In this document: positions 1,255 to 40,147 of the stretch, piece after piece
Layout: every line of letters begins with the position of its first letter
How positions within the stretch are numbered: the first letter of the stretch is position 1
IMG/VR virus record: IMGVR_UViG_2778261267_000001
Direction: 5' to 3' (one strand)
Origin: a virus
Taxonomy: Duplodnaviria > Heunggongvirae > Uroviricota > Caudoviricetes
DNA length: 40,147 bases
Notes under the pieces: model-generated
Databases searched by the model: none
What the model was told of the DNA's origin: nothing
What the model saw: only the letters and a program-made list of their open reading frames with translations
Program-made: the position numbers and the translations under genes

Positions 1255-1449
1255 TTAATTATTCTGCTGATTTTCTTCCATCTCGGCTTCTGCTTCCAGT
1301 GATTCAATTTTGTTTTCGAATATTGCTGACAGCATTGCAAATTCAGCATCAGTGACAGCGGGAATTGGAACAAACCTGATCCCGCTGTGTGCAAGCATGT
1401 TTGCAGTTTCAAGGCATTTCCTTAAATCTGCTGGTGATGTCCTGTTCAT
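1255..1449 (-). CDS. Hypothetical small acidic protein (64 aa), convergent with int
   Basis: ORF only; distal gene of the leftward operon, overlaps the methylase gene end by 4 nt. No recognisable motif. Confidence 0.4.
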   Translation of the reverse strand: MNRTSPADLRKCLETANMLAHSGIRFVPIPAVTDAEFAMLSAIFENKIESLEAEAEMEENQQNN

Positions 1450-2108
1450 GCTGCACGCTCCCGCCCCTGGTTGTCTGTTGGTGACAGCGGAGAATTGCTG
1501 AATGCATTTGTTAATCCGCCAATATCCAACGCGTATCCGGGGTGTAGTTGCACTGCCGGGTCTTCACACTGATTACCCCAAACATCGAAACCATGAGACG
1601 TCTGGCGGGCGAACAGTTCAATGCGAGAAACATCGCCTAACAATTGCACAAGTTTTTCACGAACGATATCTGGTTTTCTTGAGTGCTCAAGCCGCGGTGC
1701 GGTAAATGACTGAACGATCCCTGCATTAATGCGCGTAGGTAGTTTTCCCTTTACTGCAAACAGGCAATCTTCACTATTGGCGCGAGTCATGTGTCCCATA
1801 CCCATAACCAGTTTATCTGGTTGTCGACTACCACATTTTATCCACGTGAAGCCCTTCATGGTCATCAGACGGAATCCCCAGGCTTCAACAACTTTTAGTG
1901 CTTCGAGTGGTTGTGTTGGCACCCACCACATGGCCAACAGACAGTTTTCATCGGCCAAATCCCACACAGGAAGGCGGCAGATATCCAGCACACTCATAAC
2001 CGGATATTTAAAACCGGCACCGCGATTACCATCTGCGGCTTTGTCCCGGTATACCCAGGGTGGATCTGCATAGATTAGTGTGTATTTCTTAGTCATAAAC
2101 CACCCCAC
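1446..2108 (-). CDS. MT-A70 family DNA N6-adenine methyltransferase
   Basis: 220-aa ORF with the catalytic DPPW motif (YADPPWVY) near the N-terminus, typical of MT-A70/Dam-like phage methylases. Confidence 0.85.
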   Translation of the reverse strand: MGWFMTKKYTLIYADPPWVYRDKAADGNRGAGFKYPVMSVLDICRLPVWDLADENCLLAMWWVPTQPLEALKVVEAWGFRLMTMKGFTWIKCGSRQPDKLVMGMGHMTRANSEDCLFAVKGKLPTRINAGIVQSFTAPRLEHSRKPDIVREKLVQLLGDVSRIELFARQTSHGFDVWGNQCEDPAVQLHPGYALDIGGLTNAFSNSPLSPTDNQGRERAA

Positions 2109-8070: not shown

Positions 8071-8147
8071 TTACCTTGCGGGTAATAAAATGTTCTAATT
8101 TCTATTGATTTCATGTCTTATGTGGTTTTTAATTACCTCAGAGGTAA
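8071..8147 (+). promoter_or_regulatory. Regulated internal promoter region: two perfect TTACC-N5-GGTAA palindromes flanking a TATGTGGTT element
   Basis: TTACCTTGCGGGTAA at 8071-8085, TATGTGGTT at 8119-8127, and TTACCTCAGAGGTAA at 8133-8147 (a perfect 15-bp palindrome overlapping the RBS of the 8151 gene). Confidence 0.6.
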
Positions 8148-8150
8148 ATC

Positions 8151-8495
8151 ATGAGAAAACAGATACAGGCTCTTGGTCGACTCAAAACAGGCCAGATGAA
8201 CAAAACAGAATCTGCGTATTGCCAGCACCTTGAGCTGCGTAAACGTGCAGGAGAAATCGTCTGGTATCGATTTGAGGGTATCAAGCTTCGGTTAGCTGAC
8301 AACACGTTCTATACGCCCGATTTTGCTGTGATGCTCGCCACCGGCGAGATGGAACTGCACGAAGTGAAAGGTTTCTGGACCGACGACGCCAGGGTGAAAA
8401 CCAAAGTCGCCGCAGATCAGTATCCGTTCCGAATCATTGGGGTAACGGTTAAACCAAAGAAAGCAGGTGGTGGCTGGAACATCGAAGAGTTCTGA
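8151..8495 (+). CDS. DUF1064-like phage protein (putative PD-(D/E)XK-type nuclease / resolvase-like)
   Basis: 114-aa ORF with a D...ELHEVKG segment (D-x(n)-E-x-K) typical of small phage nuclease-fold proteins. Confidence 0.5.
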   Translation: MRKQIQALGRLKTGQMNKTESAYCQHLELRKRAGEIVWYRFEGIKLRLADNTFYTPDFAVMLATGEMELHEVKGFWTDDARVKTKVAADQYPFRIIGVTVKPKKAGGGWNIEEF

Positions 8496-8556
8496 ATCGA
8501 CGATCTTTTTAGTTATCAATGTAATCAATAAGTTATGTGGATAAGCGAGGGTAAAG

Positions 8557-9743: not shown

Positions 9744-10039
9744 CTGTATGTCTTATTGATAAACGTCGACGTGGGCAACAAATACCATCTGTTGAAATTC
9801 CGAATCACACATGGTTTTGCGTACTTGATATCGATGGTATGGATACGTTGATCGACACTCGTCATTACTGCGATACCGCAACAGCTACTCCTGCAAAAGC
9901 AAAGAAAATGGCTGCTCTGATAGAAAACTGGACTCCACCTGATGGTTGGTGCAATGGGAATGATCGAGATTGGCACGAAAAAATGAAGGGCTACATCTGC
10001 GATTTCTTACGTAAATGCAACGGATTCAGGGTGATGTGA
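9740..10039 (+). CDS. Hypothetical phage protein (99 aa)
   Basis: ORF with 4-nt start/stop overlap with the upstream gene; no motif recognised. Confidence 0.5.
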   Translation: MTVCLIDKRRRGQQIPSVEIPNHTWFCVLDIDGMDTLIDTRHYCDTATATPAKAKKMAALIENWTPPDGWCNGNDRDWHEKMKGYICDFLRKCNGFRVM

Positions 10040-10040
10040 C

Positions 10041-10757
10041 ATGAGCAAGATTGACTATCAGGCACTGCGTGAGGTGGCAGAGCGTGCAATTCCGGCAATG
10101 GAACGCCTGTTAATGTTGCCAGTTGATGATGATTTGTTAACTGAACAGGAACTTAAGGATTACGGTGTGGATATTGATGCGCTCAATGCCTTCAAATTTC
10201 TGACCGGACCAGAAACCGTGCTGGCGCTGCTGGATGAACGGGAAAGAAACCAGCAATACATCAAACGCCGTGACCAGGAGAACGAGGAAATTGCGCTAAC
10301 GGTAGGGAAGCTGCGTGTTGAGCTGGAAGCCGCAGAGAACAACCTTATTGATAGTGAGTGCCATGTTGCTGAACTGGAAGAAGCGCTACGCGATAAGCAG
10401 GCGTTACCTGAAGCATCAGAGAAGCACATAGCAGAACTGGAAACAAAAGCGAACCAGCAAACCAGAATAAGCGATAAGGGGCTGACAAAGCTGATTGCCG
10501 ATGCTGACAAAATGCTGGGTATGCGTTCGCCGGTTATAGGCAGCGAGTGGTGGACGCTTTTACGGCAGTTCCTGATTGAACTTCAGGATCGCCGCAGAAA
10601 CAGCATTTCTGAATCTGGAATCCGTGCTGAAACCCTGAATGATTTAATCCGACATATTGACAGAAACCTGGATATTGACGCGATGAAATCGCCGTTTGAA
10701 CTGTCATCTGAAATTGTGGATTACGTTAATAGGCAACTGCACAAGGATAATTCGTAA
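10041..10757 (+). CDS. Hypothetical coiled-coil protein (Ea22-like character)
   Basis: 238-aa ORF with a long central coiled-coil-like segment (LRVELEAAENNLIDSECHVAELEEALRDKQ). Confidence 0.55.
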   Translation: MSKIDYQALREVAERAIPAMERLLMLPVDDDLLTEQELKDYGVDIDALNAFKFLTGPETVLALLDERERNQQYIKRRDQENEEIALTVGKLRVELEAAENNLIDSECHVAELEEALRDKQALPEASEKHIAELETKANQQTRISDKGLTKLIADADKMLGMRSPVIGSEWWTLLRQFLIELQDRRRNSISESGIRAETLNDLIRHIDRNLDIDAMKSPFELSSEIVDYVNRQLHKDNS

Positions 10758-11119
10758 TGCAGGTGGCATTTGTTGGCCTGTTACCGCATCCGATCCGCCT
10801 TTGGGCGGATATGTCACTCATAAAAACGCATTTTTTTACTACTGATGGCGGCATTCCGGCACCAAAGCGCCGTCATACCGGTATTGCAGCGGCACGACGA
10901 GCAGCAAAGAGACGCAGGAGAGCAAAGCGATGAAAAACCGTAAAGCAAAGATTCTGTTAGTTCGTAGAAACGCTCCTGGCGTCTGGTAGTGGGTGAGACT
11001 CAGCAACCGACGGATGGGGTTGATGAAATATTACGGGATGATGGATTGTGGTTTTTGCAAAAAGCCCAGCGCGGCGCAAAACCGCTGGAAAAACCACTTG
11101 CGCACTAAAGGAGAGTGAT

Positions 11120-11635
11120 ATGGCGTTAACACACCGCGAACTCTGTCAGATTGCGTATAAGTTCCTTAAGCGCAACGGGTTCAAGGTTTGTTTTCATGAC
11201 CGCTTTATAGCTGTAACCAGTACCGGAGAACAGCCAGATGCTATTGGATTCAGAAATTCAGCATCATGCCTGATAGAGGCGAAGTGTTCTCGTGCTGACT
11301 TGTTGGCAGATAGAAAAAAGCGTTTTCGTAAAAATCCATCTCTTGGAATGGGCGACTGGCGATTCTTTATTAGTGAGCCGGGAATTATTTCAGTTGAGGA
11401 TTTACCACCTGGCTGGGGATTACTTCACGTTGTTAACGGAAGAGTACGGAAAGTACATGGGTGGCCCAAGGGTAATTGCTGTTGGGGTAATCCTGACGAT
11501 AAGCCATTTACTGGAAATAAGCAGGTTGAATGCGATTACATGTTATCTGCATTAAGGCGCATGGAGTTGAGAGGGCACCTTAATGAAATATATGACGGTG
11601 TAATTGTTAATAAGAAAGAAGGAAACGCGGCATGA
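11120..11635 (+). CDS. MmcB-like PD-(D/E)XK nuclease-fold protein
   Basis: 171 aa from the ATG at 11120 with AAGGAGAG RBS. Contains a PD...E.K arrangement (QPDAIGF ... LIEAKCSRADLLAD) followed by WRFFISEP, as in MmcB/DUF1052-type proteins. Local AT enrichment. Confidence 0.55.
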   Translation: MALTHRELCQIAYKFLKRNGFKVCFHDRFIAVTSTGEQPDAIGFRNSASCLIEAKCSRADLLADRKKRFRKNPSLGMGDWRFFISEPGIISVEDLPPGWGLLHVVNGRVRKVHGWPKGNCCWGNPDDKPFTGNKQVECDYMLSALRRMELRGHLNEIYDGVIVNKKEGNAA

Positions 11636-12450
11636 TCACTATTACCAATAAGAAACAGTATCCCAGCGAGCAATATCTTAATGAGCTGATCACCAACATA
11701 GAGTTTGCTGCAAGGGCACCAGTTGAAGTCGTGAGAGCAATGGCAGCAGAGCTACAGAAGCGGCGCGAAGCTGATAGCGCAGAACCAGTTGCTTATATTT
11801 TCAAACATCCGGCCGGGAAATTATTCTGGGCTTTAACGGATGAAAGTAATAAAGAGCAAGCGGACGTTATTCCTGTTTATGCCGCCCCTCCAGTGCCAGT
11901 AGTACCTGAAGAAAAACCAATGCCTAACCCTCTTAAAATGTACGCGGTCGATGCTGTTGCCGCTATTGCAGAGGTGAGAGGCTGGAATGCCTGCCGCGCC
12001 GCCATGCTTCAGGGTAGCCAACCTGTAAGCCAAACTTACAACTTGCCAGAATTAATCGAAGGCATGGAAGTTTCCATTGATGTAAGCACTTGTGATGCTG
12101 ATTTAGGTAATCGCTATTTCGGCACCGTCACCGAGGCGTTAGAACTTGATACAGCCAAGAATGGCTACATCCTCCTGATTCAGGACGCAGAGCCAAACTT
12201 CGATGTAAATGGCAACTCTCCGGTAACTCCGGATGGTTGGATAAGCTGTAGTGAGCGAATGCCGGAAGACACCAAAATGTTACTGGCATTTAGTCAAGGT
12301 GAAATCGTGGCCGCATATTGGAACTGGGTTGTAAATCCAATTGATTACAAAAAATATAGAGCTTTCACGTATTTATCAGGACATATCTTGGATGACGTAA
12401 CTCACTGGATGCCGCTACCGGAACCGCCGCAGGAGGTTAACCGTGGCTAA
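11632..12450 (+). CDS. DUF551-domain phage protein
   Basis: 272-aa ORF; C-terminal segment WISCSERMPE...THWMPLPEPP matches the DUF551 pattern common in enterobacterial prophages. Confidence 0.6.
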   Translation: MITITNKKQYPSEQYLNELITNIEFAARAPVEVVRAMAAELQKRREADSAEPVAYIFKHPAGKLFWALTDESNKEQADVIPVYAAPPVPVVPEEKPMPNPLKMYAVDAVAAIAEVRGWNACRAAMLQGSQPVSQTYNLPELIEGMEVSIDVSTCDADLGNRYFGTVTEALELDTAKNGYILLIQDAEPNFDVNGNSPVTPDGWISCSERMPEDTKMLLAFSQGEIVAAYWNWVVNPIDYKKYRAFTYLSGHILDDVTHWMPLPEPPQEVNRG

Positions 12451-12724
12451 CCTGCAACTTGCCGTCAAAGGTGAATACTTCGATGCCATGATTCGCAGAG
12501 AGAAAACGGAAGAGTATCGCCTGTGTAATGACTACTGGAATAAGCGAATTATGTTCCGGGAGTATGACCGCCTGATTATCACAAAGGGATATCCGAAGCG
12601 CGACGATTCCAGCCGCAGAATTGATGTTCCGTATGACGGATATGAAATCAAGACAATCACACATCCCCACTTCGGCGATAAACCGGTAAAGGTGTTCGCG
12701 ATAAAGGTGAATATTGATGGCTAA
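12443..12724 (+). CDS. ASCH-domain-like small protein
   Basis: 93-aa ORF with GTG start overlapping the upstream stop; N-terminal LQLAVKGEYFDAMIRREKTEEYR resembles ASCH-domain openings. Confidence 0.5.
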   Translation: MANLQLAVKGEYFDAMIRREKTEEYRLCNDYWNKRIMFREYDRLIITKGYPKRDDSSRRIDVPYDGYEIKTITHPHFGDKPVKVFAIKVNIDG

Positions 12725-13055
12725 ATCAGCAGCAGAGCGCAAAGCCGCTCAGAGAGCCAGACAAGCTGAATCCGGTGTGCGTAAGCTGGAAATTGTGCTT
12801 GATGCTCAGGAAATTGAAATGCTGGAGCGTAACTGTGCCACGCGTCGCCCCGGGCGCGCGCCTTACGAATTTGGTGAGTATATAGCGTTACTGATCCGCC
12901 AGGATGATGCACGCGTGCGCGGGCGTATAAAATCGATCAGCAGAAAACGTTGCGGTAAGTGCGGCGAGAGAGTTCCTGTGAATTCATGCCCGTGTAATGG
13001 TGACTCGCAATGCTGGGTGACCAAAGGCTGGCATGAAACGAAATTAATAGTGTGA
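12717..13055 (+). CDS. Hypothetical protein with Cys-rich C-terminus (candidate zinc-binding regulator)
   Basis: 112 aa from ATG 12717; C-terminal CGKCGERVPVNSCPCNGDSQCW cysteine cluster. Confidence 0.5.
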   Translation: MAKSAAERKAAQRARQAESGVRKLEIVLDAQEIEMLERNCATRRPGRAPYEFGEYIALLIRQDDARVRGRIKSISRKRCGKCGERVPVNSCPCNGDSQCWVTKGWHETKLIV

Positions 13056-13072
13056 CATGTCACGAAGGTGTT

Positions 13073-13285
13073 ATGCCAAAAATACGCTACGACCTTGAAG
13101 ATATGAGAGATAACTCAGCAAATTTTCCGAAAGAGGTTAAATTTCTCATGCATAAGTATGGTTGCGCCAGGAGGGATATAGTTATCGACAGTCAGCACCC
13201 TTGCGGCGAGGATGTAATTTTCATTCGCGGTAAATGGGAAGGGTATCTTGACGAGAGTTTTTACGATGAATTTGATGGACTTTGA
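13073..13285 (+). CDS. Hypothetical small protein (70 aa)
   Basis: ORF with GAAGGTG RBS before the ATG at 13073; last gene before a strong terminator. Confidence 0.45.
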   Translation: MPKIRYDLEDMRDNSANFPKEVKFLMHKYGCARRDIVIDSQHPCGEDVIFIRGKWEGYLDESFYDEFDGL

Positions 13286-13290
13286 ATACT

Positions 13291-13317
13291 GCCGCCAACT
13301 ATGGCGGCTTTATTTTG
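13291..13317 (+). terminator. Intrinsic terminator immediately upstream of the small terminase gene
   Basis: GCCGCC-AACTAT-GGCGGC hairpin followed by TTTATTTT; lies inside the track's N-terminal extension of the terS ORF. Confidence 0.7.
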
Positions 13318-13359
13318 CATGGTACTATTACCACAACGGTAACTATTACCACGGTGGTT

Positions 13360-13956
13360 ATGATGCCTGCTGAACCTAAAACCTATAAACGCAAATCAAC
13401 GCAATTTAAGCCACTAACAGCAATGCAGGAGGCTTATTGCCAGTCATACATCAAAACGCCTGAAAACCAGACTCAGGCAGCGATTAACGCAGGATTCTCC
13501 CCAAATACAGCGGCAGTTAAAGCCAGTGTCATGATGCGCGATGAACGCATTCAAAAACGGATTGCCGAGTTGATGGAGGAGCGCAACAAACGAATGCGCG
13601 TCAGTGCTGATTACGTTCTCATGCGCCTGGTGGAGATCGACCAGATGGACGTGATCGACATCCTCAACGACGATGGGAGCCTTAAACCAATCCGTGAGTG
13701 GCCGAAAATCTGGCGCACTACGCTTAGCGGCTTTGATCTGTCATCGACCATCATGAACATGAACGAGGATTCGATAGAGACAATCCTCAAAAAAATTAAA
13801 TGGCCTGACAAGGTGAAGAACCTTGAGCTGATTGGTAAGCATGTTGATGTCAACGCGTTCAAAGAACGCCTGGATGTTAATGTGAATGTGACAATTGCTG
13901 ATCGCATAGCGGCAGCCAGGAAGAGACTGAAAGAACGTCAGGATGGCAATCAGTGA
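13360..13956 (+). CDS. Terminase small subunit
   Basis: 198 aa from the MMPAEPK start (RBS GGTGG); helix-rich small protein immediately upstream of and overlapping the large terminase. Confidence 0.7.
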   Translation: MMPAEPKTYKRKSTQFKPLTAMQEAYCQSYIKTPENQTQAAINAGFSPNTAAVKASVMMRDERIQKRIAELMEERNKRMRVSADYVLMRLVEIDQMDVIDILNDDGSLKPIREWPKIWRTTLSGFDLSSTIMNMNEDSIETILKKIKWPDKVKNLELIGKHVDVNAFKERLDVNVNVTIADRIAAARKRLKERQDGNQ

Positions 13957-16093: not shown

Positions 16094-16170
16094 TGGCGTG
16101 GCATGCAGGATTCGAACCTGCGACCAACCGCTTAGAAGGCGGTTGCTCTGTCCAACTGAGCTAATGCCAC
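16094..16170 (-). tRNA. tRNA-Arg (anticodon UCU, decodes AGA)
   Basis: 77-nt cloverleaf folded by hand: acceptor GTGGCAT/ATGCCAC, D-stem GCTC/GAGC, anticodon stem ACCGC/GCGGT with loop CTTCTAA (anticodon TCT), T-arm GCAGG-TTCGAAT-CCTGC, discriminator G, encoded CCA. Confidence 0.85.
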
Positions 16171-16491: not shown

Positions 16492-16569
16492 TTACCCAAA
16501 AGGTAATAATTCGTGCGTTAAATGTCAACTACCTACGATAAATAAATCATATGTGGTTAAATTGGTAAT
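16492..16569 (+). promoter_or_regulatory. Candidate late promoter region: TTACC-N5-GGTAA palindrome plus TATGTGGTT-N5-GGTAAT element
   Basis: TTACCCAAAAGGTAA at 16492-16506; TATGTGGTT at 16550-16558 followed by GGTAAT at 16564-16569; about 30 bp upstream of the first virion-block gene. Confidence 0.55.
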
Positions 16570-33432: not shown

Positions 33433-33498
33433 TTACCTGAAAGGTAATATCTATTCGTGTTTATGGGTTATCTATCCATATGTGGTTTTTAAGGTAAT
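33433..33498. promoter_or_regulatory. Tailspike / divergent-gene control region: TTACC-N5-GGTAA palindrome plus TATGTGGTT-N5-GGTAAT element
   Basis: TTACCTGAAAGGTAA at 33433-33447; TATGTGGTT at 33479-33487; GGTAAT at 33493-33498. Confidence 0.55.
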
Positions 33499-33551: not shown

Positions 33552-35750
33552 ATGACGGTCTCAACCGAAGTTGACCACAACGAATACACAGGTAACGGCG
33601 TTACGACATCGTTTCCGTATACCTTCCGCATTTTCAAAAAATCCGACCTGGTTGTTCAGGTGGTTGACCTTGACGAAAATATCGCTGTGCTGGCTCTTGA
33701 TACTGATTATACAGTTACCGGGGCGGGAGGATATAACGGTGGTAATGTAATTCTGTCGAAGGCGCTGGCTAACGGTTATAAGATTTCTATATCACGAGAG
33801 CTACCGGTTACTCAGGAAACTGATCTGCGCAATCAGGGCAAGTTCTTTGCAGAAGTGCATGAGGATGCTTTTGATAAACTGACTATGCTGATTCAGCAGG
33901 CTATTAGTTTGTTGCGTCTTTCTCTGCGTAAACCGTCTTTTGTCGCAAATTACTATGATGCTCTGAACAATTACATTCGCAATCTTCGTGACCCGTCACG
34001 TCCACAGGATGCAGCAACAAAGAATTATGTTGATAGTCTTGCTGAAGAAAATTTAAGACGAACTTTGCGAACCCCTGAACGGATACCAGAACTCCCTGGA
34101 GTTGAACAGCGTAAGAATAAGATTATTGCAATGGATGATTCTGGAAATCCGATAATGGTTTTGCCTGAATCTGGTTCAGCATCAGATGTTCTGATTGAAC
34201 TAGCTAAGCCAAGCGGCCTTGGTATGATAGGGGCATCTTCTGGAAATAGTGCGCAGGCTGATATTGATTTATTGTCTTATGCTTACGGTATAAGATTAAG
34301 CACTTACCTTGATCGCGAAGACCCTTTGAGTGATGCTCTGATTGATTCACGATCAAAAAATCTACCATTAGTCATTGACTGCGATGCGACGTACAAAACA
34401 TTTCTGGTTTACAGTAACGACAGGATAATCGGTTGCGGAGATCATACTTTAACAAAAGCAGGGAATGACAAGTCATCAATACCATCAGCACAGCAACCTG
34501 AACGCCCACCTGGAACGATGACAGATTTCAGCGCGATTGATGCCGGTATTATTATCGTTCACCCTGAAAATGGAGCAGCAACTAATATCGAAATCACAGG
34601 GTTTAACATAAAAAGCAACTCTCACTCCGAATATGGAATATATCATCCTGTTTTATCATTTTCACGTATATCTAATATCAAAATTACTGGCTTTAAAAAG
34701 GGGATGAGAGCAAAAGACTCTTATGGAAACCAGTTTAGTAAAATATTCTCATTGTATTATTACTCTCCCCAAGATGTTTATAGCGACAACTATTGTTATG
34801 ATTTTTCTGATGGAGATTACGCCTCAGGAACAAGTAACACATTCAGTAATGTTACCTGTACTAACTATAAGAGACCATTCTTCTTTCAGAACCATAATTA
34901 CTTCACGATGACAAACTGTGGTGGTGAAGGGGTTAATACGCATGAGGCAGTAACAAACACAAACTATCCTCTTGTTTTTGAGTTTGTAAATGTTGTAAGT
35001 GCTGTATTGAACACTCCTTATACTGAAAATCTTTATGGAGGATTTTTAAGAGCAACATCAACGCCTGAAGGAACTGCGCAAGGTCCATCAACTATAGTTA
35101 TAAATGGACCGCAGGCAATTACAGGCATATACGGAACAGACACTGAAGTTGGAGCAAAGTTATTTGATGTAAGCGGCTCAGTAAACGTAGCTGTTAATGG
35201 TGGGGTGTTGACAGGTGCATCATTTGGCAAGTTCCTTAAGTTTGGCGGGGCTTCAGACGAAGCATGTCTGCTGATAACGGGCATGGATATGAAGTATGTG
35301 CTGTCTCAAATACGTAGTGATTTTGGATATAACGGAATTAATTCAGTTAAAGGACTTAGGCCAATTCAAATTTTGAGGAATGGAATTGGCTCTGCAACTG
35401 GTAGCGGGATTGTTAACTGGAAAAGTGCATCTATAGATGATTATTTTATGAATGGCGGTAATTATACAAAAACAGCGCTTGGTGGTTTTTATAAGATAGA
35501 AATTACGCTGCCAATAGGATCATCTGCATCAGGTGGAGAAGTTCAACTCTTGCTGTCAGATACGGATACAGACAATGGAGTTATAATTTCACAATGCTAT
35601 GTTCCTCCAGTGTCAAGCGGTAAGTTTACTGCCTCCATAAGCTACGAAGGTAGATTGCCTGGAGGAAAGTACCTTTATGTAAAGGCTAATAATGCCAGCT
35701 GGTCATCTGCATACGACATTGATTCAGTGTTTAATGTAATCCTGAAGTAA
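33552..35750 (+). CDS. Tailspike / receptor-binding protein with a low-GC C-terminal (likely O-antigen-directed) domain
   Basis: 732-aa ORF with strong RBS. N-terminal ~170 aa at normal GC, remainder markedly AT-rich; C-terminal region rich in N/G/S/T, consistent with a beta-helix receptor-binding fold. Confidence 0.8.
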   Translation: MTVSTEVDHNEYTGNGVTTSFPYTFRIFKKSDLVVQVVDLDENIAVLALDTDYTVTGAGGYNGGNVILSKALANGYKISISRELPVTQETDLRNQGKFFAEVHEDAFDKLTMLIQQAISLLRLSLRKPSFVANYYDALNNYIRNLRDPSRPQDAATKNYVDSLAEENLRRTLRTPERIPELPGVEQRKNKIIAMDDSGNPIMVLPESGSASDVLIELAKPSGLGMIGASSGNSAQADIDLLSYAYGIRLSTYLDREDPLSDALIDSRSKNLPLVIDCDATYKTFLVYSNDRIIGCGDHTLTKAGNDKSSIPSAQQPERPPGTMTDFSAIDAGIIIVHPENGAATNIEITGFNIKSNSHSEYGIYHPVLSFSRISNIKITGFKKGMRAKDSYGNQFSKIFSLYYYSPQDVYSDNYCYDFSDGDYASGTSNTFSNVTCTNYKRPFFFQNHNYFTMTNCGGEGVNTHEAVTNTNYPLVFEFVNVVSAVLNTPYTENLYGGFLRATSTPEGTAQGPSTIVINGPQAITGIYGTDTEVGAKLFDVSGSVNVAVNGGVLTGASFGKFLKFGGASDEACLLITGMDMKYVLSQIRSDFGYNGINSVKGLRPIQILRNGIGSATGSGIVNWKSASIDDYFMNGGNYTKTALGGFYKIEITLPIGSSASGGEVQLLLSDTDTDNGVIISQCYVPPVSSGKFTASISYEGRLPGGKYLYVKANNASWSSAYDIDSVFNVILK

Positions 35751-35777
35751 ACTAAGGCCCAGAACATGGGCCTTTCG

Positions 35778-36836
35778 TTACTTTATAAAGCGGCGACCTA
35801 TTGAAATAAAATGCTTTTCAATTAGTTCGTGCACTGCCACTGATATTATTAAGGTGATTGATAAAACTATAAACAACCTAGAAAACCCTGATGTGTTTGT
35901 GAAAATAAATGTATCGTACTTATAAATGCACTCAAGTATAATTACATGCACTATATATAATGAATAAGATATATCCCCGAGGTACTCAAGAGTGTTGCAT
36001 TTTTTTATTCCATTATTTTTTTCATACATAACTAAAATAAATACTATTAGAGCGCTTAGCCCCCCCCACTTTAATGGGCCGTGACCATAGAATAAATTAA
36101 TCTGGGATGCAATTAACGAAAATAACAGAAGCAATAGCCAAGGTGTAATTTTATTAAACAATATGGACTTGAAATCTACATGTTTGTATATTGCATATAT
36201 AATAATCCCATATACAAAATCAAGAAACATTGGTGAATAGAAAAGAGCGAATGCATTGCTTGGCGTTACGTTAACTTGTTTTGTATAAGCATCTGTAGAA
36301 ATCGAATCATTGAAATAGTAAGAGGCCACAATGAATATTACAACGATAGATAGCAAGCTAATGCATGTTCTGTATTTTTGATTGAAGGCAATAGCCAACC
36401 CAAAAATAGCATAGAATGCGATTTCATAAGTTATCGTCCATGCAGTATCAAGTAAATTGAACCCATAAAAAGGACTTCCTGCAGAATAATCGCTATGTAT
36501 TGGTATTAATGATTTTATGTATAATGAGTAACTGGATTCTGATTTAATGGTTAAGAAATAAACTGTCACGCATATTATCAGTAAAGGATAAATCCTGAAA
36601 AAACGACGAATAAAAAAATTAAATACGGCGTGCTTTTCAAGCCTTTCAGTTGAAAGGCATATTATAAATCCGCTAATTATAAAAAAAAGGTCAACACCGA
36701 AAGCCCCGTAATTGAAAAGCAAAGAACCTAGATCCTTCTGTGAGTAAACTTCATTCAAATACCACTTCGTATGATAAAGAACCACAAAAATAGAAGCAAA
36801 TCCCCTCATGTATTGTATTGAATGAACTTTGTTCAA
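35778..36836 (-). CDS. Acyltransferase family 3 membrane protein (probable O-antigen acetyltransferase, lysogenic conversion)
   Basis: 352-aa very AT-rich ORF with about ten hydrophobic segments and an N-terminal MRGFASIFVVLYH segment typical of acyltransferase_3 enzymes. Confidence 0.8.
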   Translation of the reverse strand: MNKVHSIQYMRGFASIFVVLYHTKWYLNEVYSQKDLGSLLFNYGAFGVDLFFIISGFIICLSTERLEKHAVFNFFIRRFFRIYPLLIICVTVYFLTIKSESSYSLYIKSLIPIHSDYSAGSPFYGFNLLDTAWTITYEIAFYAIFGLAIAFNQKYRTCISLLSIVVIFIVASYYFNDSISTDAYTKQVNVTPSNAFALFYSPMFLDFVYGIIIYAIYKHVDFKSILFNKITPWLLLLLFSLIASQINLFYGHGPLKWGGLSALIVFILVMYEKNNGIKKCNTLEYLGDISYSLYIVHVIILECIYKYDTFIFTNTSGFSRLFIVLSITLIISVAVHELIEKHFISIGRRFIK

Positions 36837-37046: not shown

Positions 37047-37061
37047 TAAACGGTGGTTTTT

Positions 37062-37466
37062 ATGTCAGTTCAGCTAACCAGTGAGTCTTTAAATCAGTGG
37101 CTTAGTGCTGGTTCTCTTGCTGCGGTGATAGCAGGGGTTCCTCCAGAGGTGGCTTTGGGGGCTTTGGCTGGGGCGGTAATTTTTGTTACCTCGGCCATCG
37201 AGTATCCCATTCATCGCCGGGTTCTCCTGTCTATGCTCAGCTTCCTCTGCGGCCTTCTCTTTTACAAACCTACAGCGTCCATCCTTATCGGTGTAGCCAG
37301 CCTGATCCCTACCATCACGCAGGACTCTTTCGAGAAAGGGATTGTTTTCTCTGCTGGTGCATTCGTGTCAGCAATCGTTGCAGTTCGAATTGGCATCTGG
37401 CTCTATCACCGTTCCGATAATCCACGCGAGTTAATTCCGGGGAGAAAAGACGATGGTAACGCATGA
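37062..37466 (+). CDS. Holin-like membrane protein
   Basis: 134 aa from the ATG at 37062; three or more hydrophobic helices; first gene of the lysis cassette, upstream of the endolysin. Confidence 0.5.
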   Translation: MSVQLTSESLNQWLSAGSLAAVIAGVPPEVALGALAGAVIFVTSAIEYPIHRRVLLSMLSFLCGLLFYKPTASILIGVASLIPTITQDSFEKGIVFSAGAFVSAIVAVRIGIWLYHRSDNPRELIPGRKDDGNA

Positions 37467-37761
37467 GCTTTTTTTGCTTATCACCAATGCAGTTATTTGT
37501 ACTGGCATAGCAATTCGTGTTGTCACATTCCGGCGTAACGGATCTCAACACCGAAGATGGGGAGGCTGGCTTGCTTATTTTCTGATTGTTGCTGCGGCCA
37601 GTATTCCAGTTCGTGCTGTCTATGCAATCTGGCTACGCACGCCAATGGCTGTGGATTTATCTGAGGTCATTATCAACGCTGTCATGTTTGCTGCGGTTGT
37701 TAAAACGCGCGGTAACGTCGTTCAGTTTTTCAAAATAACGAGGTCTAAACATGGAGATTAA
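37453..37761 (+). CDS. Second small membrane protein of the lysis cassette (holin/antiholin candidate)
   Basis: 102-aa ORF with three hydrophobic segments, overlapping both neighbours. Confidence 0.5.
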
Positions 37762-38380
37762 ACAATTCCAGCGAGCTGCTGGTATTAGCGAGGCGCTGGC
37801 CGCACGCTGGTTCTCGCATATAACTTCTGCGATGAAAGAGTTTGGTATCAGCAAACCAGAAGATCAGGCAATGTTTATTGCTCAGGTCGGGCATGAGTCT
37901 GGAGGCTTCACCCGGCTGCAGGAGAACTTCAACTACAGCGTGACCGGGCTGGCGGGATTCGTCCGTTCCGGGCGCCTCACTCAGGGCCAGGCCAACGCGC
38001 TGGGCCGTCGTGCTGGTGAGCCATCGTTACCGCTGGAGCGCCAGCGTGCGATCGCCAATCTGGTGTATAGCAAGCGCATGGGGAACAACGGGCCGACTGA
38101 CGGCTGGTTTTACCGTGGGCGCGGGCTTATCCAGATTACCGGTTTGAATAACTATCGTGACTGCGGAAACGGTCTAAAAGTGGACCTGCTGGAGAATCCT
38201 GAGCTGTTGACGCAGGACGAATACGCGGCTCGTAGCGCGGCGTGGTTCTTCTCCAGCAAAGGCTGCATGAAGTATCCCGGAGATATTGCACGTGTAACTC
38301 TGATTATCAATGGTGGCCGGAACGGCATCGACGACCGGCGCGCGCGGTACGTTACTGCCAGTAAGGTGCTGGCCGTATGA
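37751..38380 (+). CDS. Endolysin, glycoside hydrolase family 19 (chitinase-like lysozyme)
   Basis: 209-aa ORF; the segment [12 protein letters not shown]...[11 protein letters not shown] matches the GH19 catalytic core as used by phage endolysins. Confidence 0.8.
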
Positions 38381-38859
38381 TCTGGGCATTCGTAAAAGCA
38401 TACCGTAATCAGTTGATTATCATGGCGGTGCTTGCTGTTCTGGTCATATCAGGAGTTGTTGCCTGGAATGTGCACGGCAGTCGTCAGTACGACGCTGGGT
38501 ATGCACAGGCGAAAGAAGACCGCAAAACCGAAGATGAGAGAGTTCGTCAGCACTACGAACAGGAGAAATCGATCAATGAACGTGAAGCGCAGCAGAGGAT
38601 CGACCAGGCGCACAATGATGCTCTTGATGCTGCCGCTCGCGCTGGCCGGTTGCAGCAACAGCTCGTTGCCATCCGTGAGCAGCTCAGGCACTATAACGCC
38701 ATTGTCGGCGCTGGGTCGTCAGCCGCAGACACCGGAGTTTTGCTTGCCGACGTGTTCAGCAAATCTCTCGAGAGAAATAGACAACTGGCAGAGTATGCTG
38801 ACCGGGCATCCGAAGCCGGAAGAGTCTGCGAAAAACAGTATGACACCCTGACCAGATAG
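38377..38859 (+). CDS. Rz-like i-spanin
   Basis: 160-aa ORF with an N-terminal TM helix and a coiled-coil periplasmic domain; overlaps the endolysin stop; contains an embedded +1-frame lipoprotein ORF. Confidence 0.7.
38576..38851 (+). CDS. Rz1-like o-spanin (lipoprotein) embedded within the Rz gene
   Basis: Alternative-frame ORF wholly inside Rz, with AGGAG RBS 10 nt upstream of the ATG at 38576, a lipobox (LALAGCS) and a Pro/Ser-rich mature part. Confidence 0.6.
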   Translation: MNVKRSRGSTRRTMMLLMLPLALAGCSNSSLPSVSSSGTITPLSALGRQPQTPEFCLPTCSANLSREIDNWQSMLTGHPKPEESAKNSMTP

Positions 38860-39076: not shown

Positions 39077-39616
39077 TTAATTAAACCAGCTGTCCGATTT
39101 GTTCTCTTCTGCTTTGCCCACGCTTTTCATCAGATCGCGACCGCCTTCAGTCATATTTCTGTTGGCGTCAGCTTCAGATTGCACCACATCGGTTTGCGCA
39201 GCTTTGTGCTTCAGTTCCTGATCGATAAATTCGTTTTCGCGCTTAACGCGGGCTTCTTCTTTTGCCAGCGCCAGTTTTTGTTTCTGAATCTCTAAGCTGC
39301 GTAGCTCATCTTCATAACTTTGATCGCGTTTTTTGTCCGCAGTGGCTTCGGCGTCCAGTTTATCCTGACGAGCTTTCTTATTTGCCGCTGCCGTTGCCGC
39401 TCTTTTGTTAGCGGCGGCCTGGGCATTTGCGCGACGTTGCTTCTCTTGCTGGATTTCCCTGTTGCGCTCCGCGACCCATTCGTCATGCTGCCTTTGCTCT
39501 TCATTTTTACCTTGCTGTTCCGCTTCTGCGACAGCAGAGAGTTGATCCTGCAATGATGAGGCGATAGCCGGATAGCTTAAGGAGGCTAAGATGGCGCAAA
39601 GAAAAACTTTCTTCAT
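39077..39616 (-). CDS. Exported coiled-coil protein (signal peptide; Gln/Lys/Ala-rich)
   Basis: 179-aa ORF with a signal peptide (MKKVFLCAILASLSYPAIA) and a highly charged helical body; may be host flank or prophage cargo. Confidence 0.55.
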   Translation of the reverse strand: MKKVFLCAILASLSYPAIASSLQDQLSAVAEAEQQGKNEEQRQHDEWVAERNREIQQEKQRRANAQAAANKRAATAAANKKARQDKLDAEATADKKRDQSYEDELRSLEIQKQKLALAKEEARVKRENEFIDQELKHKAAQTDVVQSEADANRNMTEGGRDLMKSVGKAEENKSDSWFN

Positions 39617-39631
39617 GACTCCTCCTGATTA

Positions 39632-40147
39632 TTAGCTCTTTTCAGGACATTTGGTATTTGGCTGAATACGCGTTTCGTTATACGTCGTGGTAATAACAAC
39701 GGCTAAACCTGTCGTAAACTGGCACTCTTTACCCACCTGGGTAGAGGTATACACTTTGGTGCCTTCCTTATAGGTTAAAGAAACACCTTCCACTAAGGTT
39801 TTATCATTCACCATAGAACCCGCTGCCGCGCCTACAGCTCCGCCGCCAACTGCACCTGCCGTCGTTCCGGAATTGCTGCCAGACCCGACGTTGTGGCCGA
39901 TAACACCGCCAGCGACTGCGCCAATAAGCGCGCCGAAGGCTTGTGCGTTCCGTTTATTTTGGGAGTTGTCTACGGCAACTTTTGCGGGAAGAATGGAAAT
40001 AATATTAACGGTTTTAGTTTCTTGTTTGGTATTCAGTTGATCGGTTTGATAAACATCGGCAGCATGATCGTCAGCATTTGACTGGCATCCTGCCAGAGTG
40101 AATGACGCTAACATTGCCACAGGCAGAAGACATTTTTTAAATTTCAT
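39632..40147 (-). CDS. Glycine-zipper outer-membrane lipoprotein (YcfJ-like family)
   Basis: 171-aa ORF starting at the last base of the window; lipobox (LAGCQ) and a GxxxG glycine-zipper block (GALIGAVAGGVIGHNVGSG) resembling E. coli YcfJ-type lipoproteins. Confidence 0.6.
   Translation of the reverse strand: MKFKKCLLPVAMLASFTLAGCQSNADDHAADVYQTDQLNTKQETKTVNIISILPAKVAVDNSQNKRNAQAFGALIGAVAGGVIGHNVGSGSNSGTTAGAVGGGAVGAAAGSMVNDKTLVEGVSLTYKEGTKVYTSTQVGKECQFTTGLAVVITTTYNETRIQPNTKCPEKS

Follow-up and report, generated by a model that had tools for sequence, protein, structure and literature searches.

The question raised by this locus is whether three consecutive genes, for a nuclease-fold protein (g1), a DUF551 protein (g2) and an ASCH-like protein (g3), belong together as defence or anti-defence cargo of the phage that carries them, as was suggested in the first-pass annotation of the sequence. 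The window, i.e., the whole stretch of 40,147 nucleotides that was analysed, comes from an E. coli contig (GCA_002486075.1, NNWL01000001.1) and represents an E. coli prophage of the epsilon15/TL-2011b-like type. The three genes are located in its early-right operon, between the replication genes (O-like, P-like and DUF1064) and the terminase genes. This surrounding had been described as nin-like, but the gene content (Ea22, EaA/DUF551) is of the "ea-region" type and not of the nin type. We consider it probable that the three are functionally independent accessory genes drawn from the ea-type pool and placed in the early-right operon, and that they do not make up one system. The features of the locus are listed in Table 1.

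Table 1. Features of the locus, with positions counted from the first nucleotide of the window.
Feature	Position	Strand	Description
Small 62-codon ORF	10930..11118	+	in-frame amber codon here; seen in alignment with APEC17 and TL-2011b
Shine-Dalgarno AAGGAG of g1	11108..11113	+	6 nt before the start codon; read from the sequence
g1	11120..11635	+	171-aa stand-alone PD-(D/E)XK nuclease, phrog_9263/phrog_631
g2	11632..12450	+	272-aa mosaic protein with C-terminal DUF551 domain
DUF551 domain of g2, residues 202-267	12235..12432	+	Pfam envelope, model 1-68 of 68
g3	12443..12724	+	93-aa minimal ASCH/PUA-like domain protein, phrog_625
Context gene	12717..13055	+	112-aa Cys-rich protein, phrog_536 "transcriptional regulator" (PHROGs label)

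All three genes really exist. An independent gene caller returned from the source contig the same products of 171, 272 and 93 aa, consecutive and on the plus strand. The start of g1, on the other hand, was previously placed near 11045, which is 75 nt too early. The actual ATG is at 11120, behind an AAGGAG stretch whose run into g1 is conserved in the alignment with APEC17 and TL-2011b, and the segment 11048-11119 is a mere extension of the reading frame, running over the last part of a separate small ORF. The ATG of g2 overlaps the stop codon of g1 (ATGA), g3 begins with a GTG and shares its first 8 nt with the end of g2, and the last 8 nt of g3 are in turn shared with the gene of the Cys-rich protein. 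Because the stop and start codons overlap, g1, g2 and g3 are co-transcribed within the long early-right operon and translationally coupled, and they have no promoter of their own. A promoter/terminator scan found no promoter-like site upstream of g1; its single promoter-like match was situated inside g2 and scored below the shuffle expectation. An Rfam search of positions 10000-13500 revealed no RNA families, and a repeat search gave only short chance repeats.

A regulatory element upstream of g1, similar to TATGTGGTT, had also been proposed, namely the string ATTGTGGTTTTT at 11045-11056. This proposal was not supported. The string deviates from the 9-mer TATGTGGTT by two mismatches and is contained within the small ORF, where TGTGGTTTTT near 11045 makes up the codons for Cys-Gly-Phe-Cys. 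The 10-mer TGTGGTTTTT, common to both, was observed three times versus 0.10 expected; upstream of g1 it is missing in TL-2011b and in seven of the eight g1-carrying relatives, i.e., it accompanies the gene in only one of eight. The small ORF itself is intact in E. coli APEC17 (WP_000797279.1), while here it contains TAG at 10987-10989 in place of the CAG of the relatives, and no gene was called at this position of the source contig. Conserved intergenic TATGTGGTT sites are situated elsewhere in the window, at 8119, 16550 and 33479. The reported AT enrichment turned out to be marginal and carries no meaning. The GC content was 46.1% for the span of the three genes versus 48.6% for the window (44.0% for g1 alone), and 16% of all equal-sized windows were as low in GC, or 4% if the first 32.5 kb only were considered.

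The occurrence of the genes was followed in a comparison set of 62 near-identical relatives, whose loci held 47 distinct gene orders. DUF551 was present in 58 of the 62, ASCH in 31 and g1 in eight, whilst the gene of the Cys-rich protein, directly upstream of the small terminase gene, was found in all. Within this phage lineage, DUF551 almost belongs to the core, although the N-terminal modules with which it is combined are shuffled. Co-occurrence of g1 with ASCH was exactly at chance level (odds ratio 1.0, p=1.0). The exact trio, contiguous at at least 80% coverage, was found in none of 5,426 complete E. coli genomes; taken singly, g1 was present in 910 of these genomes and g3 in 1,465. The three genes assort independently and form no conserved multi-gene cassette; the region is an ordinary hyper-mosaic "ea-type" accessory segment of already catalogued phage genes.

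These figures bear directly on the idea of a split modification-dependent nuclease, in which g3 would sense a modified base, g2 would bridge and g1 would cut. Such an arrangement could account for the overlapping codons at all three junctions, for the order g1-DUF551-ASCH in four of the 62 relatives and for the fact that the DUF551 gene always follows g1 (8/8), but DUF551 occupies the same position in its 58 loci with or without g1, and g1 and ASCH meet no more often than by chance. Fusion proteins of g1 and DUF551 do occur, but all of them were single-contig singletons and were rejected as a functional link. The prophage also carries an MT-A70 N6-adenine methyltransferase, and a linkage of ASCH with N6A methyltransferases has been reported (PMC4738411); however, MT-A70 is near-universal among the relatives (58/62) and ASCH is found in half of them, so the data show no specific link and a tie between the two was not accepted. 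Outside Enterobacterales, neither DUF551 nor ASCH was ever found next to g1 in the loci analysed. Taken with this evidence, a split nuclease appears extremely improbable to us. Fusions of another kind, joining the Ea22 N-terminus to g1, are recurrent in Salmonella.

The labels given to the three proteins in the first-pass annotation hold at the superfamily level, as HMM and structure searches returned 3DNX for g1, PF04448 for g2 and ASCH structures for g3. The first of them is a PD-(D/E)XK nuclease by fold. It gave no match at E<=0.1 to Pfam, NCBIfam or PADLOC, and was assigned by PHROGs with E 3e-123 to phrog_9263/phrog_631. In the moderately confident AF2 model (pLDDT 77, the C-terminal 20 residues being disordered) the helices 5-18 and 58-64 and the strands 23-25, 41-45, 48-54 and 80-85 are arranged as an alpha-beta-beta-beta-alpha-beta core. 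Core beta strands two and three carry the catalytic D...(D/E)-x-K motif of the superfamily: D40 stands at the start of strand 41-45, and E53-A-K55 belongs to strand 48-54. The putative active site consists of E37, D40 and E53-x-K55, succeeded by an S-R-x-D-[FL]-x-x-D motif; D40 and E53-A-K55 did not vary among 26 close relatives, and in 61 distant ones they were either invariant or at least 90% conserved. Foldseek comparison with the PDB placed PD-(D/E)XK nucleases on nearly all of ranks 1-19, in the order 3DNX, R2 endonuclease domain, Bax1, Hjc and restriction enzymes. PVL lectin, which came up in a single-protein sequence search of the PDB, was dismissed as a chance match.

The closest structure, 3DNX (SPO1766), is assigned to DUF1052 (PMC3424549), the MmcB-like family. 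MmcB of Caulobacter is an SOS-induced PD-(D/E)XK endonuclease for mitomycin C and cisplatin damage (PMC9578287), and its SOS-regulated part in repairing interstrand cross-links is known for this protein only. The Foldseek alignment of 3DNX takes in the whole of g1, with 158 aligned columns (E 6.3e-6, probability 1.00, TM 0.57/0.66, 23% identity), and hmmsearch with the g1 profile recovered 3DNX at E 2.1e-4, aligning D...ECK-SR-DF-D. Both groups have in common the extended motif D...[IL]-E-x-K-x-S-R-x-D-F-x-x-D, and the structural neighbours of g1 include several phage proteins that carry an MmcB-like annotation. Neither g1 nor its homologues from virulent phages, however, scored above the gathering threshold of PF06319 (no match at E<=0.1 in either case), and only eight of 61 relatives matched the model weakly, at best with E 2.9e-4. 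The g1 proteins differ, in addition, by a conserved C-terminal extension (W122, K128-P-F, E137, R146-R147) and by their carriers, which are prophages, virulent phages and conjugative elements, whereas DUF1052 is found mostly on alphaproteobacterial chromosomes (PMC3424549). A similar likeness was seen to Hjc (PF01870), the Holliday junction resolvase of archaea, which agrees with g1 in the minimal PD-(D/E)XK core and in the spacing of the motifs. The Hjc structures 1HH1, 4TKK and 2EO0 gave sub-threshold matches to the g1 profile, Hjc was also among the Foldseek matches, and PF01870 was matched weakly by ten of 61 relatives, while g1 itself had no significant match. A role of g1 as the sole junction resolvase was set aside, as the phage already has, among its core genes, a DUF1064 nuclease that PHROGs labels as Holliday junction resolvase.

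In this prophage and its relatives g1 is situated downstream of the replication genes. In Klebsiella phage phi1_146029 (157 kb) the homologue is directly upstream of the DNA primase gene and abuts it, and in Vibrio phage MAR10 it comes after the genes for helicase loader, polymerase, primase/helicase and an SNF2-like helicase. Homologues in conjugative elements adjoin TraC, and others are found on P1-like plasmids. No conserved neighbour was found among 33 g1 loci from diverse taxa, in agreement with the earlier remark that the nuclease has no evident partner. These contexts, in replication modules of strictly virulent phages and on conjugative elements, point to a nuclease of DNA replication or recombination rather than to immunity cargo; for annotation, the family may be called MmcB/Hjc-related and replication-associated.

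The opposite view, that one or more of the three products shield the phage against host immunity (for example a nuclease, or a binder of modified bases, acting to neutralise a host system) or the lysogen against other phages, is where the suggestion of cargo belongs. What stood of that suggestion is variability: g1 and ASCH come and go in otherwise near-identical phages, in a hyper-mosaic region of slightly lowered GC, and the g1 family has spread over mobile elements such as those carrying TraC and the P1-like plasmids. In type IV restriction enzymes, PUA-like domains, to which g3 is related, commonly act as sensors of modification (PMC7897488). The defence part of the suggestion was unsupported. 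Searches of g1, g2, g3 and three neighbouring genes against PADLOC-DB v2, which holds defence models only, gave no families at E<=0.1; neither a conserved partner nor an effector was found, and g3 has no fused effector domain. Moreover, homologues of g1 reside in the replication modules of virulent phages, where protecting a lysogen would be pointless. That the genes could instead be conserved core genes had been named earlier as speaking against cargo; DUF551 comes near to that state, which is also at odds with a protective role, while g1 and ASCH remain variable. Altogether we find protection from host immunity or from other phages an unlikely function for these genes, and keep to accessory genes acting independently.

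A third possibility is that the genes are selfish or decaying filler, kept by recombination hitch-hiking and devoid of current function in this prophage. Decay is indeed seen nearby, in the amber mutation of the small ORF and in frameshifted or partial copies among the relatives (pseudogenes in APEC17, a split copy in another relative), and most relatives do without g1. Yet the reading frames of g1, g2 and g3 are all intact here, their catalytic and motif residues are conserved, and the families comprise thousands of clusters, virulent phages included (3,163 clusters at 50% identity for g1). Across genera g1 showed 90% amino-acid versus 76% nucleotide identity, and the same codon was used in 47% of conserved residues; this last measure was used in place of dN/dS, which was not computable due to saturation of synonymous sites. 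Strong purifying selection has thus acted on g1 in different genera, and we hold mere hitch-hiking to be very improbable.

The second protein is modular. It matched PF04448 over residues 202-267 with 76.1 bits (cut-off 22) and E 4.1e-21, covering the full model, positions 1-68 of 68, and had no match in NCBIfam or PADLOC. A single-protein sequence search of the PDB with g2 returned nothing. The N-terminal and middle modules are variable, and segments of the protein matched 11 different PHROGs. It has more than 8,000 relatives, and among the 90% clusters listed nearly all were single-member; one NCBI protein (P0388) is 100% identical. We know of no member of the DUF551 family with a defined biochemical function. 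Tblastn matches were found in P22 EaA and in Stx phages. P22 EaA, the Ea22 V2 variant of Stx phages and YfdS of E. coli CPS-53 carry, like g2, a C-terminal DUF551 on mosaic ea-region proteins (PMC10834534, PMC4776307), but the N-terminal and middle modules of g2 (phrog_6847, phrog_12449/14306) differ from theirs. DUF551 has been described as a portable domain (PMC10834534).

The third protein was identified by PHROGs with E 6e-50 (phrog_625), and NCBI names its family "ASCH domain-containing protein". It had no match at E<=0.1 in Pfam or NCBIfam and none in PADLOC, and the Pfam field was empty for all 120 relatives listed. The AF2 model (pLDDT 89) is a PUA-like beta-barrel in which strand 1 is followed by a single helix before strand 2. 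Foldseek ranks 1-13 were all of the ASCH type (3IUW, 2Z0T, 5GUS, YqfB), followed by YTH domains; the best of them, 3IUW, had probability 1.00, a weak E of 6.9e-3 and TM 0.49/0.56. BirA and a xylosidase, from the single-protein PDB sequence search, were discarded as chance matches. The ASCH signature, GxKxxExR, is defined for the alpha1-beta2 region (PMC6803910), and g3 has R19-x-K21-x-x-E24-x-R26 at the same alpha1-beta2 position, i.e., three of the four motif residues, with R19 replacing the glycine. The family alignment shows no variation at K21, E24 and R26 and at least 90% conservation of G19. Barrel and helix are the same as in the ASCH proteins 3IUW, PH0355 (2Z0T), ZmASCH (5GUS), the ac4C amidohydrolase YqfB and human EOLA1, but with 93 aa g3 is among the smallest, TM-scores are only about 0.5, and Arg takes the place of the motif Gly. 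By its model, g3 is a minimal ASCH/PUA-like barrel that has the ASCH motif in three of its four positions.

As to function, we infer the substrate of the g1 nuclease and the ligands of DUF551 and ASCH from these resemblances. The g1 protein would most likely be an active Mg2+-dependent DNA endonuclease with a minimal core like that of Hjc and MmcB, and it may cut intermediates that arise, branched or damaged, as the element's own DNA is replicated and recombined. The conserved C-terminal DUF551 of the modular g2 could serve as a portable adaptor. A bare ASCH (PUA-like) pocket in g3 may bind, and possibly hydrolyse, a modified nucleoside or nucleic acid, with the ac4C amidohydrolase YqfB and the YTH readers as parallels. 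A wider proposal, to which we attach quite a small probability, would make the g1 family a nuclease specific to mobile elements that is dedicated to their own replication forks (for example by removing host-imposed blocks, cross-links or lesions generated by defence) or acts in anti-defence. DUF551 would then be a portable targeting domain, bringing effector domains as varied as the Ea22 coiled coil, a MazG-like pyrophosphohydrolase and g1 itself to one target shared by them in the host or the phage.

Some observations count against our preferred reading of three independent accessory genes. The window also encodes a RecE/RecT pair, which together with DUF1064 makes an extra junction nuclease not obviously needed. 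The g1 gene is dispensable, being missing from 54 of the 62 relatives, and variable presence is equally a trait of anti-defence genes.

As a discovery the locus has little value, since hyper-mosaic accessory segments of this kind are ordinary; hundreds to thousands of sequenced E. coli prophages carry its genes at 95-100% identity. The g1, DUF551 and ASCH proteins are reasonable targets for biochemistry, and no long-standing question is opened by them. Of use for annotation are the observations that a very large family of intact PD-(D/E)XK nucleases of mobile elements (phrog_631/9263) is without a Pfam model, and that small phage "ASCH" proteins retain the ASCH signature motif.

The window is an E. 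coli prophage in its integrated state; it belongs to the epsilon15/TL-2011b type, and its nearest named phage is Escherichia phage TL-2011b. An integrase is found at the left end, and a repressor lies between a leftward early operon (MT-A70 methyltransferase, RecT, RecE-like exonuclease) and a long rightward operon comprising O-like and P-like replication genes, a DUF1064 nuclease, several unknown ORFs and an Ead/Ea22-like gene. Small and large terminase and structural genes are situated further downstream, and a low-GC acyltransferase and a lysis cassette in the right part. Between the Ead/Ea22-like gene and a Cys-rich 'regulator' gene are g1 (171-aa PD-(D/E)XK nuclease), g2 (272-aa DUF551 protein) and g3 (93-aa ASCH protein). 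The three adjacent genes which the first-pass annotation had reported at 11045-12724 were indeed present, on the plus strand and tightly packed, the gene after g3 overlapping it as g3 overlaps g2. NCBI lists an E. coli protein 100% identical to that of g2 from contig NNWL01000001.1 (assembly GCA_002486075.1), on which the gene calls match ours. This span is most likely an ordinary ea-type accessory segment, i.e., drawn from the Ea22 and EaA/DUF551 kind of accessory gene pool.

Positions of the features discussed, in the window unless a contig locus is named
Feature	Position	Strand	Remarks
MT-A70 family N6-adenine DNA methyltransferase	1446-2108	-	leftward early operon
Exact TATGTGGTT	8119-8127; 16550-16558; 33479-33487	+	AT-rich intergenic sites
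Related TATGTGGTT site	8534-8542		
DUF1064 nuclease	8151-8495	+	Pfam DUF1064; phrog_190, labelled 'Holliday junction resolvase'; small PD-(D/E)XK type
62-codon ORF	10930-11118	+	amber TAG in frame at 10987-10989; CxxC-like 'CGFC' motif
g1	11120-11635	+	ATG 6 nt after AAGGAG at 11108-11113
g2	11632-12450	+	ATG overlaps g1 stop codon
g3	12443-12724	+	GTG start; 8-nt overlap with g2 end
Cys-rich protein, 112 aa	12717-13055	+	phrog_536, labelled 'transcriptional regulator'; Cys-rich C-terminus
tRNA-Arg (anticodon TCT)	16094-16170	-	between large terminase and portal genes, on opposite strand
Very low GC block	33552-36836		GC 32-40%
Acyl_transf_3 gene	35778-36836	-	after tailspike-like gene, convergent with it
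Lysis cassette	37053-38859	+	two holin-family genes, GH19-type endolysin, DUF2514
Two leftward genes	39077-40147	-	after lysis cassette; DUF5384 and glycine-zipper/TraT-like lipoprotein
g1-family gene directly beside F-type TraC conjugation ATPase gene	L025 6001-9086; L031 3076-6458		Pantoea, Alteromonas

With the replication protein as anchor, 80 near-identical prophages were fetched, and the loci covering the full interval between the P-like and small terminase genes were counted, 62 in total with the window included. The DUF1064 gene, directly 3' of the P-like loader gene, and the Cys-rich 'regulator' gene, immediately 5' of the small terminase gene, were kept in all 62; the former likely encodes the core junction nuclease of the phage, and the product of the latter may regulate late genes or packaging. 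DUF551 was found in 58 loci, Ea22 in 42, ASCH in 31 and g1 in 8, in 47 distinct gene orders. Co-occurrence of g1 and ASCH was exactly at chance (4/4 vs 27/27, odds ratio 1.0). On its own, g1 was present in 910 of the 5,426 complete E. coli genomes and g3 on its own in 1,465; none carried the trio in the window arrangement at ≥80% coverage. On the chance co-occurrence, the many gene orders and the missing trio, the three genes are independent modules set side by side by recombination. The proposal that the trio is defence or anti-defence cargo found no positive support; both the near-core status of DUF551 and the replication-module setting of g1 (below) weaken it, leaving it the less likely reading.

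The start of g1 near 11045 was merely an upstream ORF extension, the true ATG being at 11120. The stretch 10930-11118 is itself an ORF, not an intergenic control region, and probably a fresh pseudogene; E. coli APEC17 has an uninterrupted version (WP_000797279.1), with CAG in place of the amber codon. At 11045, the supposed TATGTGGTT-like element differs from the 9-mer TATGTGGTT at two positions. The window contains the 10-mer TGTGGTTTTT more often than expected (3 occurrences vs 0.10), but at the 11045 site it encodes Cys-Gly-Phe-Cys of the small ORF. Since TGTGGTTTTT is absent 5' of g1 in TL-2011b and in 7 of the 8 g1-carrying close relatives, the element is linked to the small ORF rather than to g1. 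A promoter/terminator scan found neither a sigma-70-like promoter nor a terminator bracketing the cluster. AT enrichment does exist but is small (GC 46.1% vs 48.6% for the window; g1 alone, 44.0%); 16% of windows of equal size have this GC or less. The first-pass annotation is confirmed in part: for its genes and folds, but not for its start coordinate, upstream element and compositional signal.

No Pfam, NCBIfam or PADLOC model matched g1, which matches PHROGs of unknown function (phrog_9263, phrog_631). An exhaustive profile search (E<=1e-3) placed it in a family of 3,163 clusters at 50% identity, with D40, E53 and K55, plus E37, conserved throughout, and a motif S57-R-x-D60-[FL]-x-x-D64 after K55. 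The AlphaFold model (pLDDT 77, pTM 0.74) is a minimal alpha-beta-beta-beta-alpha-beta core. Its sole strong PDB match was 3DNX (E 6.3e-6, TM 0.57/0.66), the structure of DUF1052/PF06319, now named MmcB-like (PMC3424549); lesser matches were PD-(D/E)XK nucleases, i.e., R2 retrotransposon endonuclease, Bax1, XisH, Hjc and restriction enzymes. A diverse family profile matched 3DNX across the catalytic motif (E 2.1e-4) and Hjc just below threshold, while weak PF06319 and Hjc matches occurred in 8 and 10 of 61 relatives, respectively. Predicted viral structures annotated MmcB-like were also among the structural neighbours. On the 3DNX matches, the weak PF06319 relatives and these neighbours, the label 'MmcB-like PD-(D/E)XK' is correct as a statement of fold and remote homology, but not as membership of Pfam PF06319. 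Compared with an Enterobacter homologue, g1 has 90% amino-acid and 76% nucleotide identity, with the same codon at only 47% of conserved residues; this sequence comparison shows that g1 is under strong purifying selection.

In 33 g1-containing loci from diverse genera, no neighbour gene family travelled with g1 except DUF551, a neighbour in 13 loci, all Enterobacterales. Non-enteric g1 genes adjoin TraC-type conjugation ATPase genes, a C5 DNA methylase or a nucleoid-associated protein. The F-type TraC neighbourhoods show that the family resides in conjugative elements too; the L031 copy is split by a frameshift. By tblastn, homologues were found in 643 phage records, including virulent 157-kb phages of Salmonella, Klebsiella and Dickeya, as well as Vibrio siphoviruses. 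The homologue of Klebsiella phage phi1_146029 directly abuts the DNA primase gene on its 5' side, and that of Vibrio phage MAR10 comes after genes for a helicase loader, a polymerase, a primase/helicase and an SNF2-type helicase. Mainly because of these replication modules and virulent phages, a replication, recombination or repair nuclease is favoured over immunity cargo. We propose that g1 would be an active MmcB/Hjc-like endonuclease acting on the element's own DNA intermediates. A recurrent Salmonella enterica fusion of an Ead/Ea22-like N-terminus to a g1 domain (proteins P0091, P0092 and P0101, 240-248 aa, several contigs) suggests that the domain can serve as an interchangeable C-terminal domain of Ea22-type proteins.

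Residues 202-267 of g2 match DUF551 over its full length (E 4.1e-21), and the rest is a patchwork with segments matching different PHROGs. DUF551 is a portable domain of unknown function, carried by the Ea22 V2 variant, YfdS and a MazG-like pyrophosphohydrolase (PMC10834534; PMC4776307). By tblastn, it is tied to P22 EaA and the ea regions of Stx phages. More than 8,000 relatives of g2 were found, and almost all of the 90% clusters listed are single-member, which shows extreme module shuffling; g2 may function as a DUF551 adaptor protein.

There was no Pfam match for g3, whose family is named 'ASCH domain-containing' by NCBI. Its AlphaFold model (pLDDT 89) folds as a small barrel whose strand 1 is followed by a helix. 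PDB matches 1-13 were all of ASCH type (3IUW, PH0355, PF0455, ZmASCH, PF0470, YqfB), followed by YTH domains, though weak (best E 6.9e-3, TM ~0.5). The family motif G19-x-K21-x-x-E24-x-R26 agrees exactly with the ASCH signature GxKxxExR of the alpha1-beta2 region (PMC6803910), whereas the window copy has R19 in place of G. The product is putatively a minimal ASCH ligand-binding domain. ASCH domains are predicted modified-base binders, some linked to N6-adenine methyltransferases (PMC4738411). The prophage encodes an MT-A70 enzyme, found in 58/62 relatives (a count limited by flank length); with this gene near-universal and ASCH in half, a specific link cannot be shown. Novelty is low, because all three genes belong to already catalogued families or superfamilies.

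Exact TATGTGGTT sites each lie 30-75 nt upstream of a plus-strand gene (DUF1064, ORF 16577 and the tailspike-like gene at 33552). The one at 8119, inside the spacer of a TTGATT-17-TTTAAT promoter-like arrangement, could be a genuine site for a promoter or regulator; it is kept upstream of DUF1064 in 77/77 close relatives, which are too similar to be informative. The E. coli APEC17 prophage likewise has a tRNA-Arg annotated at the corresponding place. The very low GC block includes a 732-aa tailspike-like protein with no Pfam match, and the Acyl_transf_3 product probably acetylates O-antigen (lysogenic conversion). The two leftward genes after the lysis cassette may be morons or the prophage edge.
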